This document shows, in pieces, positions 1,915-23,558 of a DNA stretch of 27,149 nucleotides; position 1 is the stretch's first letter, and each line of letters begins with the position of its first letter. A program made the translations under genes and the position numbers. The notes beneath the pieces were generated by a model. That model did no database searches. It had not been told where the DNA came from and saw only the letters and a program-made list of their open reading frames with translations. This DNA comes from Atribacterota bacterium (lineage in GTDB: Bacteria; Atribacterota; Phoenicimicrobiia; Phoenicimicrobiales; Phoenicimicrobiaceae), in the NCBI GenBank assembly GCA_030599445.1, contig JAUVOA010000001.1:1-27149 (forward strand). The letters run 5' to 3'.

Positions 1915-2940
1915 ATGAAGGCAGCTGTATTTTACGCACCTCACCTGGTAAAATTGGAAGAAATTAATATTCCCGATATCGGTCCTGACGAAGTTTTAGT
2001 AAAAGTGAAAGCCGCACTTACCTGCGGGACAGATCGTAAAACCTACTTAAGAGGGCATCACTTATTTAATCCGCCTTTTGTTTTTGGACATGAGTTTGCC
2101 GGTGATATAGTAGAAGTAGGCAGTAAGGTTAAAAAAATCAAACCAGGAATGAGAGTAGTGGCCGCTAATTCTGCCCCTTGTAATTCCTGTTTTTACTGCA
2201 AAAATGGTGAACATAGTTTGTGTGATAGTTTATTTATTCAATTAAGCGGTGCTTTTGCAGAGTATATAAAAATTCCCGGAATAATTGTTTCCCAAAATTT
2301 ATTATTATTTCCCGAGATAGTAAGCTATAAGGAAGCAGCATTTTTAGAACCTCTTTCTTGTGTAGTTCATGGAGTTGAAGAATCAAAAATTAATTTAGGT
2401 GATACAGTGGTTATAAACGGAGCAGGTCCGATAGGTTTAATGTTTTTGCAAGTAGTTAAATTAAAGGGAGCAAGGGTTATTATAACTGATATGCTTGAGG
2501 AGAGACTAAAATTAGCCATTAAGTTAGGGGCTTATAAAGTAATAAATGTTTCTAAAGTGCAGAATCCTGTTGAAGAAGTGAAAAAACTTACTGAAGATAA
2601 GAGAGGAGCAGATGTAGCTATTGAAGCAGTCGGGTTACCAGAGGTTTGGGAGCAGACTATTTCGATGGTAAGAAAAGGAGGAATGGTAAATCTTTTTGGC
2701 GGATGTAAAAGAGGAACGAAAGTATCTATTGATGCCAGTTTGATTCACTATTCCCAAATAAACATAAAGGGAGTTTTTCATCATACACCTGGGCATGTTA
2801 AAAGAGCATTAAATTTAATTTGTAATAAGGCGATTGATATTGACTCATTGATTACTGACGAATTTCCCCTTAGTGAAATATCTAATGTAATAGAGCTGAT
2901 GTTGGCTCATAAAGGCATTAAAATAGCTGTGATACCTTGA
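1915..2940 (+). CDS. Zn-dependent medium-chain dehydrogenase (sorbitol/threonine dehydrogenase-like)
   Basis: CGTD, GHE, structural Zn site CNSCFYC..C, GAGPIG NAD-binding motif. The ORF is open from 1879; MKAAV at 1915 is the more typical start. Confidence 0.88.
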   Translation: MKAAVFYAPHLVKLEEINIPDIGPDEVLVKVKAALTCGTDRKTYLRGHHLFNPPFVFGHEFAGDIVEVGSKVKKIKPGMRVVAANSAPCNSCFYCKNGEHSLCDSLFIQLSGAFAEYIKIPGIIVSQNLLLFPEIVSYKEAAFLEPLSCVVHGVEESKINLGDTVVINGAGPIGLMFLQVVKLKGARVIITDMLEERLKLAIKLGAYKVINVSKVQNPVEEVKKLTEDKRGADVAIEAVGLPEVWEQTISMVRKGGMVNLFGGCKRGTKVSIDASLIHYSQINIKGVFHHTPGHVKRALNLICNKAIDIDSLITDEFPLSEISNVIELMLAHKGIKIAVIP

Positions 2941-7278: not shown

Positions 7279-7371
7279 AAAAGTTGAAAAAGGCAAACTG
7301 TCCGAAAGGACAGGACGCAAAGTTATGGGTCTAAGGTATTTTATGCTATGATTGCCAAATTACCAACTTTT
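7279..7371 (+). ncRNA. c-di-GMP-I (GEMM) riboswitch
   Basis: GGCAAACUGUCC-GAAA-GGACAGGACGCAAAG..GGUCUAAGG..CUAUGAUUGCC..UUACC; P1 aaaagttg (7279-7286)/caactttt (7364-7371); G20-equivalent G7292 and C92-equivalent C7363. Confidence 0.92.
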
Positions 7372-18076: not shown

Positions 18077-18955
18077 GTGATTAATTTGAAATTAAAAACC
18101 AAAAAAGGATATATTTTATTAATTTTGCTTTTCCTCATTTTCTTTATTATTGCTTATAAATCAAAGGCAGATGAAATAAACGGGGAAAACAGAGTAATCC
18201 CTTTAGGAGAAGTAGATTCATTAAAAGTGACTATAAAATTTGGGGCAGGAAAGCTGGACTTAATTTCCGGGGAAGAAGATGTGTTTAAAGGCAATTTTCA
18301 ATATGATAAAAGTATCTTAAAGCCTAATGTCCAGTATGAAATATTAGAGAAAACCGGTATTTTAATTCTATCGCAAAGTATTAAGAAAGACCTTGATTTA
18401 CCATTTCCTTATAAAAATAGATGGAATTTGAAATTACCTTCCAGTATCCCTCTGCAATTATATATCAACACCGCAACTTATAGTGGAGATATTAACCTAA
18501 CTAATTTACAGATAGAATATTTTCATCTTAATTCAGGAGCAAGTCAAACCAATATTGAATTTAATCAACCTAATCTTATAGACTTAAAAAATATTAATAT
18601 CAAAACAGGCGCCTCTTCTATAAAAATGTTAGGTTTAGCCAATGCAAATTTTAATGAAATGAATTTTACCGGTGGAGCAGGGAGCTACACTTTTGATTTT
18701 TCAGGTAACCTGACTAAAAAATCGAAAGTTAGTATTAATGCAGGAGCAGCCAAAATAATTTTGAAGATACCTGCGAACATGGGGGCTAAGATAATTTTTA
18801 GAAATTTTCCGGCTTCAAAATTAGATGTCAGGGGTTTTATAAAAATAAATGACCAGACTTATATTAGCCCGGAATATGGCAAAAGTGCCGCAGAATTAGA
18901 TATCGAAATCAAGGGAGGCCTTGTAGATGTTGAGGTAGTCTCACTAACCAATTGA
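18077..18955 (+). CDS. Exported/membrane-anchored beta-repeat protein (toast-rack/LiaF-LiaG-like)
   Basis: N-terminal basic plus hydrophobic anchor, then repeated GAG/GAS beta-strand units (IKFGAGKL, LNSGASQT, IKTGASSI, FTGGAGSY, INAGAAKI). Family assigned from pattern only. Confidence 0.6.
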   Translation: MINLKLKTKKGYILLILLFLIFFIIAYKSKADEINGENRVIPLGEVDSLKVTIKFGAGKLDLISGEEDVFKGNFQYDKSILKPNVQYEILEKTGILILSQSIKKDLDLPFPYKNRWNLKLPSSIPLQLYINTATYSGDINLTNLQIEYFHLNSGASQTNIEFNQPNLIDLKNINIKTGASSIKMLGLANANFNEMNFTGGAGSYTFDFSGNLTKKSKVSINAGAAKIILKIPANMGAKIIFRNFPASKLDVRGFIKINDQTYISPEYGKSAAELDIEIKGGLVDVEVVSLTN

Positions 18956-18980
18956 CTTTTATTTTTTTTTCAATTATACT
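18952..18980 (+). promoter_or_regulatory. sigma70 promoter of the leuS T-box/tRNA-Ala leader
   Basis: TTGACT-N17-TATACT. Confidence 0.75.
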
Positions 18981-19009
18981 AAAAACGAACTCAGAAAGAA
19001 AAAGACCGA

Positions 19010-19361
19010 GCGAAGGATTGAAGGGTATATTTTTTAAAAAGAGAATCAGCATTTGGTGAAAGCTGATAAGACACCTTTAAACTCACCTTCAAGTTTTGTA
19101 AGCGAGAAATTAAATTAATAATATTGATTTAAACATAGTTTACAACGTTAACAAGCGTTAATTGTTTAATAAGAGTAGATAATGTGGGGCTGTAGCGCAG
19201 TCGGGAGCGCGCCTCCTTGGCGTGGAGGAGGTCGCGGGTTCGATTCCCGCCAGCTCCACCAAATTATAATATATTAAATCTACTGAAAAAGGGTGGTACC
19301 ACGAGAAAGATCTCGTCCCTGGTAATAGTTTGATCAATTACTTGAGACGGGATTTTTATTT
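19010..19361 (+). ncRNA. Leucine T-box riboswitch (specifier CUC) upstream of leuS
   Basis: Stem I ttgaagg (19018-19024)/ccttcaa (19086-19092), AGAGA box, GGUG loop, CUC-A at 19082-19085; CGUUA stem IIA/B region; T-box AAGGGUGGUACCACG (19289-19303); terminator hairpin about 19310-19352 followed by a T-tract. Confidence 0.92.
19186..19261 (+). tRNA. tRNA-Ala(GGC), embedded in the leuS T-box
   Basis: 76-nt cloverleaf, acceptor GGGGCUG/CAGCUCC with G3:U70, anticodon GGC at 19219-19221, UUCGAUU T-loop, encoded CCA. Confidence 0.97.
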
Positions 19362-19381
19362 TTAAGGAGGAATATCTAAAA

Positions 19382-21883
19382 ATGGAAGATAGATATAATT
19401 TTACCGAAGTTGAAAAAAAATGGCAGGAGTATTGGAATAAAAATAATTATTTTAAATCTTATGTCGATTCTAAAAAACCGAAATATTATGTTTTAGAAAT
19501 GTTTCCCTATCCTTCGGGAGAGCCTCATATGGGACACGTGAAAAACTATGTTATCGGCGATGTAGTGGCCAGATATAAGCATTCTCAAGGATATAATATC
19601 CTACACCCCATGGGCTGGGATGCTTTTGGCTTACCTGCGGAGAACGCTGCTATAAAAAAGAAAATTCATCCTTCAATCTGGACAAAAAAAAATATTAAAA
19701 AAATGAAGAATACTCTAACCAATATGGGTATTAGTTACGATTGGGACAGAGAAATAGCCACCTGTAATCCGGATTACTACAAGTGGACTCAGTGGATATT
19801 TTTGCAATTATATAAAAAGGGATTGGCTTACAAGAAAAAAGCGGTAGTTAATTGGTGCAATTCTTGCAATGTAGTATTAGCCAATGAACAAGTAATAGAT
19901 GGAAAATGCTGGAGGTGTGAAACCGAAGTTGTTAAAAAAGAGTTGTCCCAATGGTTTTTTAAGATTACCGAATATGCTCAGAGATTACTCGATGATATAG
20001 AATGTTTAGAAGAATGGCCAGAGAAAGTATTAACTATGCAGAGAAATTGGATAGGCAGGAGCGAGGGAGCAAGGATTGAATTTCCCATAAAGGGGAGCGA
20101 TAAGACTATTCCAGTTTTTACTACCCGACCCGACACTCTCTATGGAGCAACTTATTTTCTATTATCTCCCGAACACCCTTTAGTAGAAGAGATTATAAAA
20201 GATTCTCCTCATAAAGTTGAAGTGCAGAGTTTTAAAGAGGAGATAAGTAAAGAGAGTGCTATAGATAGGGTATCAGGCATTTCAGAAAAAAAGGGATGTT
20301 TCACCGGTAAATATGTAATAAATCCCCTAAATGATGAAGAGATTCCTATTTGGATAGCAAATTATATATTAATGGACTATGGAACAGGTGCGGTAATGGC
20401 AGTTCCGGCTCATGACCAAAGGGATTTTGAATTTGCCAAAAAATATAATTTACCTATAAGAATAGTTATTCAACCAAAAGACAAGAAAGTTACCTCTGAT
20501 ACAATCGAGGCCGCTTTTGATGAAGAAGGCATTATGGTTAATTCCGGTCAATTTAATGGTTTGTCGAGTAGTAAGTCATTAGATGTTATAATTGATTATC
20601 TGATTAAAAAGGGGTCTGGGAAGAGAGAGGTTAATTACAGATTAAGAGATTGGCTTATTTCGCGTCAGCGTTATTGGGGCGCACCTATTCCCATGATTTA
20701 CTGTGCCGATTGTGGTATGGTTCCCGTACCTGAAAATGATTTGCCCGTTTTGCTTCCTGAAAATGTTGATTTCAGACTCAAGGGCATGTCTCCACTAGCA
20801 AACAGCAAAGAATTTGTCAATACAATTTGTCCAAAGTGCGGCAAGGGAGCCAAAAGAGAAACAGATACTATGGATACTTTTGTCTGCTCTTCCTGGTACT
20901 ACCTTAGATTTTGTTCTCCTAAAAGCAATACAGTACCATTTGATGTTGAAGAATTAAAATATTGGATGCCGGTAGATCAATATATCGGTGGGGTAGAACA
21001 TGCCATATTGCATTTATTATATTCTCGGTTTTTTACCAAAGCTTTATATGATATGAAATATGTTAATTTTAAGGAACCTTTTAAAAGGCTTTTTACTCAG
21101 GGAATGGTTTGCAAAGATGGGGCAGCTATGTCTAAATCCAAAGGCAATGCAGTTAATCCGAGAGAAATATTTTCTAAATTTGGCATTGATGCTACCAGAG
21201 TAATGATGCTGTTTGCCGGTCCTCCGGAAGCAGATATGGAATGGACTGATAAAGGGATGGAAGGGGCATCTCGATTCTTGAATCGAGTTTGGCGGTTAAT
21301 ATACAATAATATCGATTGCTTTAAAAAAGCAGGAAATAAAGAAGAAGTTTCCCCGGAAGATATAAGTGTTGAAGCTAAAAAAATAAAACAGCAGACCCAT
21401 CAAACCATTAAAAAAGTGACTGAAGATACCGAGGAAAGATTTCATTTTAATACTGCAATTAGTGCCATAATGGAGTTAGTTAATGAAGTATATAAGTTTC
21501 AGTTAGAAGCAGAAGAAAAACAGGGCAAAGAAGGAGATGTTTTTGTTTTAAAAGAGGCTTTAGAAATGATAGTCAGGCTTTTAGGTCCCATCGCTCCTCA
21601 TTTTTCAGAAGAGCTATGGCAAGAGATGGGTAACAAAGAAATTATCTACATACAGCCATGGCCCAAGTATGATGAGAAGATGTTAGAGGAAGAGGAGAAG
21701 CTCATTGTAGTCCAGGTAAACGGAAAGCTAAGAGGGAAATTGATTGTTCCTGCATCTTACGATGATGAGAAAATAAAAGAGGAAGCACTTTTTTTGCCCA
21801 AAATACAAGAAAAAATTGAAGGCAAAAAAATTATAAAAGTTATTGTTGTTTCTGGGAAACTGGTAAACATTGTGATAAAATAA
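19382..21883 (+). CDS. leuS: Leucine--tRNA ligase
   Basis: MFPYPSG.PHMGH, CP1 editing motifs TTRPDT and [44 protein letters not shown]. Confidence 0.98.
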
Positions 21884-22975: not shown

Positions 22976-23051
22976 GGGCGGATAGCTCAGTTGGGAGAGC
23001 ACTGGTTTTACAAGCCAGGGGTCACAGGTTCAAGCCCTGTTCCGCCTACCA
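22976..23051 (+). tRNA. tRNA-Val(TAC)
   Basis: Cloverleaf, anticodon loop UUUACAA, encoded CCA. Confidence 0.96.
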
Positions 23052-23071
23052 TTTTTTAATAAAATTATAGT

Positions 23072-23150
23072 GGGGCCGTAGTGCAGCTTGGTTTAACACG
23101 CCTGCCTGTCACGCAGGAGATCGCGAGTTCAAATCTCGTCGGCCCCGCCA
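23072..23150 (+). tRNA. tRNA-Asp(GTC)
   Basis: Anticodon arm CCUGC-CUGUCAC-GCAGG, encoded CCA. Confidence 0.96.
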
Positions 23151-23188
23151 TTTTTTTAATAATATAATTATGTAGGGCGATTATAAAT

Positions 23189-23264
23189 GCCGAGATAGCT
23201 CAGTCGGTAGAGCAGTGGACTGAAAATCCACGTGTCCCCAGTTCAATTCTGGGTCTCGGCACCA
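23189..23264 (+). tRNA. tRNA-Phe(GAA)
   Basis: Anticodon arm GUGGA-CUGAAAA-UCCAC, encoded CCA. Confidence 0.96.
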
Positions 23265-23272
23265 GGTTTTTT

Positions 23273-23347
23273 GCGGAAATAGCTCAGTGGTAGAGCATTG
23301 CCTTGCCAAGGCGAGGGTCGCGGGTTCGAATCCCGTTTTCCGCTCCA
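23273..23347 (+). tRNA. tRNA-Gly(GCC)
   Basis: Anticodon loop UUGCCAA, U73, encoded CCA. Confidence 0.96.
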
Positions 23348-23367
23348 TCTTTATAAAAGTTAAACGT

Positions 23368-23441
23368 GGCGGCATCGCCAAGTGGTAAGGCAGAGGACTG
23401 CAAATCCTTCATCCTCGGTTCGAATCCGAGTGCCGCCTCCA
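23368..23441 (+). tRNA. tRNA-Cys(GCA)
   Basis: Anticodon loop CUGCAAA, U73, encoded CCA. Confidence 0.96.
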
Positions 23442-23483
23442 TTTAATTATTAATTTGTGTAACGATAGAAGCCTAAAGGAGAC

Positions 23484-23558
23484 GGGCGGTTAATTCAGTG
23501 GTAGAATGCTTGCTCGACGCGCAAGAAGTCACTGGTTCGAATCCAGTACCGCCCACCA
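23484..23558 (+). tRNA. tRNA-Val(GAC) with atypical anticodon loop
   Basis: CUUGC-UCGACGC-GCAAG anticodon arm, acceptor GGGCGGU/ACCGCCC, encoded CCA. Confidence 0.92.

Follow-up and report, generated by a model that had tools for sequence, protein, structure and literature searches.

The leucyl-tRNA synthetase gene leuS in the DNA analysed here is preceded by a leucine T-box leader that houses a complete, non-cognate tRNA-Ala(GGC) gene in the loop of its Stem III. The locus lies in the window, a stretch of 27,149 nucleotides from an Atribacterota genome, and runs on the forward strand from a promoter through the T-box leader with its nested tRNA-Ala(GGC) to a terminator, a ribosome binding site and leuS (Table 1). 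The linkage of tRNA-Ala(GGC) to leuS is independent of the T-box, and this is the new piece that our analysis adds. The nested tRNA is probably a second product of the leuS transcription unit, carried by the riboswitch without being part of its sensor.

Table 1. Features of the leuS leader in the window and the evidence for each
Feature	Positions	Strand	Evidence
Sigma-70-type promoter-like site TTGACT-17-TATACT	18952-18980	+	Promoter scan, 10/12 matches
T-box leader, class I transcriptional (Stem I, Stem II, IIA/B, Stem III, antiterminator)	18999-19323	+	RF00230
Specifier codon CUC (Leu), followed by conserved purine A19085	19082-19084	+	cmscan alignment
Purine-rich string AUAAG (overlaps AAGAG), RRRxG element of the discriminator, 5' of Stem III	19169-19173	+	
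Stem III 5' arm AGTAGAT	19174-19180	+	RF00230 alignment, folding, covariation
tRNA-Ala(GGC), 76 nt, G3:U70, A73, encoded CCA	19186-19261	+	ARAGORN, RF00005
Stem III 3' arm ATCTACT	19278-19284	+	RF00230 alignment, folding, covariation
Linker GAAAAA after the Stem III 3' arm	19285-19290	+	
Antiterminator: helix A1, 7-nt T-box bulge UGGUACC (19294-19300), helix A2	about 19290-19320	+	
Intrinsic terminator hairpin and U-tract, 12 + 6 bp, then UUUUUAUUUUU	19309-19364	+	MFE and centroid fold
RBS AGGAGG	19365-19370	+	
leuS, leucyl-tRNA synthetase, 833 aa	19382-21883	+	ORF

The leader, the nested tRNA and Stem III

The T-box family model RF00230 aligns to the leader over its full length (model positions 1-219), with a score of 90.1 bits and an E-value of 2.2e-20. 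The gathering score of the family is 93, and the default Rfam cut-off reports no T-box here; the match is seen by E-value threshold. The score falls below the gathering value because the Stem III loop measures 97 nt where the model expects 5, and in the alignment this insert consists of the tRNA and short spacers. Stem I contains AGAGA, UGGUGAAAG and then AAA-CUC-A closed by CCUUC, which places CUC in the specifier position and upholds the assignment to leucine made in a preliminary description of this DNA. That description had also placed the tRNA within Stem III and called it non-cognate, and an alanine tRNA in the loop insert of a leucine T-box is what the alignment gives. The features that define class I T-boxes are present, namely the specifier loop and distal motifs of Stem I, a UGGNACC bulge and a competing terminator. 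The antiterminator reads GGGUGGUACCACGAG...CUCGUCCC at 19291-19319, flanking a 7-nt bulge of the UGGNACC type, and CUCGUCCC is common to the terminator hairpin and to helices A1/A2, making the terminator and the antiterminator mutually exclusive. A review describes the discriminator domain as a Stem III flanked by 5'-RRRxG and AA-3' (PMC7583486); the order in the window, AUAAG/AAGAG, AGUAGAU...AUCUACU and (G)AAAAA, corresponds to it. The tRNA-Leu(GAG) that matches the CUC specifier is encoded in the same assembly.

For the nested gene, ARAGORN calls tRNA-Ala(GGC), the Rfam tRNA model RF00005 scores 67.9 bits against a cut-off of 29, and G1-C72, G2-C71, G3:U70, the discriminator base A73 and CCA can be read directly from the letters, all in agreement with the complete 76-nt gene proposed earlier. 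The assembly comprises 316 contigs and 1.83 Mb at 34% GC, with 36 tRNAs, and at its completeness of 84% the nested gene is the sole tRNA-Ala of any kind, and hence the only tRNA-Ala(GGC), found in it. When the tRNA alone was used as query, 38 of 41 relatives each gave a single copy, in every case at the leuS leader; the three relatives without a copy are 63-87% complete, and two of them (G023 and G033) are also without a confident leuS match. In another phylum, too, three genomes (G386, G206 and G170) yielded no tRNA-Ala(GGC) besides the nested one. When 28 loci are aligned, pairing in the four tRNA stems is complete (100%) and includes compensatory changes, G3:U70 is present in 28/28, and CCA is encoded in nearly all of the nested tRNA-Ala(GGC) genes.

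Stem III is the element that has to accommodate the tRNA, and several lines of evidence indicate that it does so. Folding of 18988-19362 yields -105.4 kcal/mol (z = -4.2); in the MFE structure as well as in the centroid, the Stem III arms pair around the tRNA and the terminator hairpin is present. The arms had previously been drawn as AGTAGAT/ATCTACT with an inner extension, aatgt/atatt, so that the helix would close right at the 5' end of the tRNA. The outer arms form in both folds and covary; the extension is not conserved, position 19275 being A rather than T in most genomes of the same genus and in one metatranscriptome relative, and the conserved helix in the window therefore ends 5 nt before the tRNA. 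It is in the sister family that the arm abuts the 5' end (0 nt), with the 3' arm 2-6 nt after CCA. Spacer length is variable, 0-27 nt between the 5' arm and the tRNA and 0-31 nt between the tRNA and the 3' arm.

Comparison across lineages supports the same structure. An unanchored search for the longest helix returned AT-rich decoys, and only the anchored cross-lineage analysis, in which the 3' arm is required 5-7 nt before GGGUGG, is informative. It finds at least 5 contiguous Stem III pairs in 74/82 non-redundant loci, against 43% with a shuffled 5' flank, although for helices of 5-7 bp the significance at any one locus is weak (median p about 0.1). The 5-bp basal helices take 36 distinct forms, positions 2-5 each showing 5-6 types of pair, and their pairing falls to 21-44% when the partner is slid. 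The motif RRRNG stands ahead of the 5' arm in 40 of the 74 loci, compared with a background of 7.7%. The 28-locus alignment was seeded with coordinates from our own helix calls and so leans towards the structure; read with this in mind, five of six Stem III pairs have changed on both sides with 88.5% of cells paired, the antiterminator helices are 98-99% paired, and the whole structure is 97.9% paired across these diverse loci against 48-53% when slid. The arms thus covary around the tRNA, and the conserved layout and covariation bear out the earlier impression that the nesting is selected and not accidental.

Linkage of tRNA-Ala(GGC) and leuS across lineages

The leader was matched in 41/41 relatives, which span two families and 15 genera, and 37 of the 39 loci fetched from this taxonomic order have the same layout, with tRNA-Ala(GGC) 15-43 nt upstream of the GGGUGGUACC motif. 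The phylum to which the window belongs is represented by 86 species genomes in seven families. The nested pattern occurs in 23/29 genomes of family f1 and 19/22 of f2, and our scan of the 86 genomes found it absent from f3, f4, f5 and f7. Two pattern hits in f6 were rejected, as they consist of tRNA-Ser(GCU) with a chance GGGTGGTACC and have no T-box context. By comparison with this patchy distribution of the nested pattern, tRNA-Ala(GGC) stands immediately upstream of leuS in 84/86 genomes of the phylum.

How the tRNA and leuS are joined where the T-box is missing can be seen in f3-f7, where all eight loci that we read (among L169-L178, from genomes G041, G047, G054, G069, G070 and G072-G074) consist of a compact promoter, tRNA-Ala(GGC), a hairpin with a U-tract, a ribosome binding site and leuS. 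The promoters are strong (for example TTGACT-17-TATAAT, 11/12 matches), about 10-25 nt separate promoter and tRNA, and about 8-35 nt separate tRNA and hairpin. The hairpin, for example GCTCGTCCC...GGGACGGGC followed by the U-tract, retains the CTCGTCC motif of the T-box 3' half. None of the eight loci has a Stem I, II or III or a T-box bulge, and none has room for a second promoter; leuS in these families seems to be reachable only through read-through of the terminator of the tRNA. An intermediate state is found in the window's own family, in genus g2 (L027, G019:C47:18050-19100), where the T-box is decayed, Stem I and GGGUGGUACC are gone, and tRNA-Ala(GGC), a long T-box-type terminator and an intact leuS are retained.

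Since tRNA-Ala(GGC) is found at leuS without a working T-box in five families and in genus g2, it is not there to serve the switch. The conserved core is the series tRNA-Ala(GGC), terminator and leuS; some lineages have the T-box as a further layer of regulation and others do not. We infer that the T-box was lost at least two times within the phylum while the core stayed, with the direction of change, gain versus loss, being unrooted. Two further genomes, both of the window's genus, have shortened leaders. In G002 (L020/L160, C4) everything from Stem I through the Stem III 5' arm is missing and the tRNA, terminator and leuS are intact, which may represent a variant or an artefact. The leader of G005 (L039/L161, C40) is without the equivalent of window positions 19093-19275, from Stem II through the tRNA; we rejected it as a natural deletion variant on account of an unreliable assembly, in which leuS has an internal deletion and a frameshift and the genome is 63% complete.

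The nested arrangement extends well beyond this phylum. We scanned 185,579 species genomes for any tRNA T-arm followed by GGGTGGNACC within 24-54 nt; the pattern is limited to GGTTCRANTCC T-loops 24-54 nt before GGGTGGTACC, and tRNAs nested in other ways could escape it. Examination of the matches, at least 120 loci, with ARAGORN gave at least 50 loci in other phyla with tRNA-Ala(GGC) immediately before a genuine antiterminator, under labels that include Syntrophomonadaceae, Peptococcaceae, Thermoanaerobacteraceae, Desulfotomaculia-type genera, Thermomicrobiales, Ktedonobacteria, Anaerolineales and others. Among the matches listed there are three further T-box-like hits with no tRNA call, and no other type of tRNA stands before a T-box, the hits with other tRNAs being without T-box context. 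The phylum that contains the Thermosyntropha locus has the pattern in 37 of 301 sampled genomes (about 12%), with an Ala-type acceptor end in 36 of the 37.

LeuS is encoded directly downstream in at least 40 of the at least 50 loci in other phyla and is 45-65% identical to LeuS of the window. The remaining genes downstream of the loci listed are a class IV aminotransferase, an AMP-binding enzyme and a hydrolase, with four unresolved, and the module of T-box and nested tRNA has been duplicated or moved as a unit in other phyla. At two loci (L071 and L096) the nested Leu(CUC) leader precedes a gene for a class IV, branched-chain-type aminotransferase, as it does at L122 by N-terminal similarity only, and at L064, L107 and L091 genes for AMP-binding enzymes or an alpha/beta hydrolase take the place of leuS. 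The carriers recovered by the scan include two cultured strains, Desulfofundulus thermosubterraneus DSM 16057 and Desulfotruncus alcoholivorax DSM 16058, in which an AMP-binding enzyme is encoded downstream. On the Anaerolineales-like contig of L091, a second tRNA gene (2211-2283, minus strand) lies immediately upstream of the nested leader.

The specifier is as constant as the tRNA. It was assigned in 80 leaders by motif count with a reverse-complement control, and the context RAR-CUC-R occurs in 78/80, compared with 3/80 on the reverse complement; the other two also have CUC, so that the specifier is CUC in 80/80. For the odd case, L091, cmscan confirms the CUC specifier and gives a Stem III insert of 84 nt. 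We considered a T-box able to read two codons, given the GCU contained in GCUC of some leaders, and dropped it, as this is not conserved and most leaders have ACUC. The preliminary description had mentioned cognate tRNAs within the T-boxes of alaS; all of the specifiers recovered here are CUC, and no identified downstream gene is alaS. Our literature searches brought up no account of a T-box with a tRNA gene within it, a mention in the survey of Vitreschak et al. (2008) being possible, and the review PMC7583486 mentions unexplained T-box insertions and no tRNA gene.

Transcription of the locus and proposed mechanism

The leader stretch is present in RNA libraries from marine sediment and cold seep. 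A 355-nt contig, 98% identical to 19065-19420, begins in the 3' portion of Stem I, covers the tRNA and the terminator and reaches the start of leuS; a 736-nt contig of a relative, from another RNA run, covers 18962-19696; and a 171-nt contig with 100% identity to 19100-19270 bridges the 5' end of the tRNA. When RNA-library contigs are aligned to 18700-20100 they start at 18962-19006, and the upstream gene (18700-18934) has zero depth in all four RNA runs that cover the leader. This upstream gene (18077-18955) encodes a protein with a Toast_rack_N (DUF2154) domain. The contigs are assembled and have no strand or end information, DNA carry-over is possible, a single molecule is not proven by them, and ends near the tRNA may be branch points of the assembly produced by tRNA sequence common to different organisms. 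Within these limits they fit one transcript begun at the leader promoter. The case for a shared transcription unit of tRNA and leuS consists of one promoter-like site, one assembled contig that spans the leader, the tRNA and the start of leuS, and the zero depth on the upstream gene.

We think it probable that this one transcription unit makes two products, a Leu(CUC) T-box leader and a tRNA-Ala(GGC) carried as a passenger in a tolerant loop. A single strong promoter would drive a leader that is predicted to work as a Leu(CUC) T-box, giving many leader transcripts in which the apical loop of Stem III is replaced by what is apparently the cell's only tRNA-Ala(GGC) gene. Because the tRNA gene lies entirely upstream of the terminator, every leader transcript carries the tRNA whether it is terminated or read through, as the preliminary description had noted for the terminated form, and the abundant terminated leader most likely doubles as a pre-tRNA-Ala. 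Stem III is expected to close around the folded tRNA with the RRRxG and AA flanks intact, so that the discriminator could still sense uncharged tRNA-Leu(GAG) co-transcriptionally and govern how much transcription continues into leuS. From terminated and read-through RNAs alike, tRNA-Ala may later be freed by RNase P and 3' nucleases. The outcome would be a high output of tRNA and a low, leucine-tuned output of leuS from one promoter. We infer this order of folding and processing in the leader, and likewise that the output of tRNA is independent of leucine status.

Several other explanations of the arrangement have to be weighed. That the juxtaposition is an assembly chimera or arose by chance might be suggested by the state of the metagenome-assembled genome, fragmented into 316 contigs and 84% complete, but the layout recurs in dozens of independent assemblies, including single-contig genomes, and on RNA-library contigs at 98-100% identity, which refutes a chimera and leaves this explanation with a practically negligible chance. 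Nor does the insert look like a mimic, a tRNA-shaped structural module of the leader with no role in translation. Its unusual location is the one point that hints at this, and nothing direct does; against it, the gene is the only one for tRNA-Ala(GGC) found per genome, all identity elements are kept (G3:U70 throughout the 28 loci, A73, the GGC anticodon loop and, in almost every case, an encoded CCA), each of the four stems has compensatory changes, and the identical tRNA stays a stand-alone gene in families without the T-box. We regard a mimic as highly improbable. It is also very unlikely that the tRNA has a promoter of its own inside the leader, so that tRNA and riboswitch overlap physically and are expressed independently. 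By eye, a weak resemblance to a promoter (TTAACA-17-AAGAGT) can be made out at about 19148-19176, but the promoter scan finds no forward-strand site between 18981 and 19419, the site in Table 1 being the sole strong one ahead of leuS, as had been described. Moreover, the resemblance overlaps the conserved IIA/B and purine-string elements, the sister family and GC-rich phyla have no room for it or no similar sequence, and RNA-library contigs that include Stem I or Stem II continue without a break to the tRNA.

A more serious alternative is that the nested tRNA contributes to the working of the riboswitch, and it could do so in three ways. As a timer, the roughly 95 extra nucleotides and their stable fold ahead of the antiterminator would allow more time for tRNA-Leu to bind; as a processing switch, the insert would let RNase P cut Stem I and II off from the discriminator, leaving the leuS mRNA with a new 5' end and a different stability; and cross-talk between alanine and leucine could pass through the ACCA end of the tRNA, which is complementary to the UGGU of the bulge. 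The strict partnership of Ala(GGC) alone with CUC alone, held across phyla among the matches listed, speaks for such a role. So does the sister family, where the arm abuts the tRNA and the 3' arm lies 2-6 nt past CCA, as stacking could gate RNase P there, and tRNA-Ala and tRNA-Leu both have A73, matching the UGGU of the bulge. However, the variable spacers between arms and tRNA argue against a precise geometry, an embedded tRNA has no free 3' end during the termination decision, and the inner extension of the helix is not conserved. Furthermore, lineages without the T-box keep the tRNA at leuS, so its presence is independent of the switch, and the processing-coupled control and cross-talk between alanine and leucine raised in the preliminary description find no support. 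We therefore consider a working role doubtful. In its most elaborate form, the insert would be an evolved kinetic and processing module, in which folding and length delay the antiterminator for docking of tRNA-Leu and Stem III gates RNase P cleavage, and this too seems unlikely. Were it true, RNase P would cut the sensor away from the leuS mRNA and determine the 5' end and lifetime of that mRNA, and tRNA maturation capacity would be coupled to synthetase expression.

On balance we favour the tRNA as a passenger in a structurally tolerant loop and not as a component of the sensor. Two points weigh against the passenger model in its simplest form. Passive hitch-hiking alone fails to explain the constancy of Ala(GGC) and Leu(CUC), and pairing of leader and trailer in Stem III could hinder RNase P, so that processing is perhaps not simple. 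For this strict pairing the best explanation is one ancient origin that then became locked in. The tRNA needs the promoter of the leader, and Stem III needs the arms that flank the tRNA.

Known systems and significance

The leader resembles canonical class I T-boxes (RF00230; leuS and tyrS of the Bacillus type) in its stems, its purine string and AA, its UGGUACC bulge and the aminoacyl-tRNA synthetase gene downstream. It differs in that the canonical Stem III loop has a few nucleotides where the leader in the window has a complete non-cognate tRNA gene. Insertions in T-boxes are known as such: Stem Sa is a lineage-specific insertion in staphylococcal glyS T-boxes (PMC9177973), and the review PMC7583486 speaks of "curious insertions in every domain". 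Such insertions are simple helices that are thought to adjust the binding of tRNA or drugs (PMC9177973, PMC7583486). The insert in the window, by contrast, is predicted to give an independently functional gene product, crosses phyla and is always one tRNA species.

Outside the T-boxes, the closest likeness is to mixed tRNA-mRNA operons, in which a tRNA and a translation-related protein gene depend on one promoter, as is presumed for the locus in the window. In the thrU-tyrU-glyT-thrT-tufB operon of E. coli, a single promoter serves tRNAs and an mRNA, and processing of the joint transcript frees the tRNA. Unlike in the thrU-tufB unit, the tRNA described here sits inside a regulatory RNA, before a conditional terminator, and the outputs of tRNA and mRNA would thereby be uncoupled. 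The units without a T-box in f3-f7 share with the window the tRNA, its placement with respect to leuS, the upstream promoter and a hairpin with a U-tract between the two genes.

If our reading is correct, this would be a gene nested in a riboswitch, with a single leader RNA that regulates by sensing one tRNA and is the precursor of another, and a terminated T-box leader, otherwise "wasted", could be productive. That Stem III tolerates a structured loop insert of 76 nt makes the leader a natural case on which recent structural models of the discriminator can be tested. The linkage of tRNA-Ala(GGC) and leuS throughout the phylum, with or without the T-box, may likewise serve as a natural series for studying the gain and loss of a riboswitch around an attenuated operon. 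Moreover, nested leaders are missed by the Rfam cut-off, which has consequences for annotation pipelines for both T-boxes and tRNAs.

The window contains further structured RNAs in addition to the leuS leader. About 1.1 kb downstream of leuS lies a cluster of six tRNAs (22976-23558: Val-UAC, Asp, Phe, Gly-GCC, Cys and Val-GAC). Elsewhere in the window there are a c-di-GMP-I riboswitch (7282-7367, 82.9 bits) and a THF riboswitch (1053-1171, 71.1 bits), the latter with a 27-nt insert in one loop.
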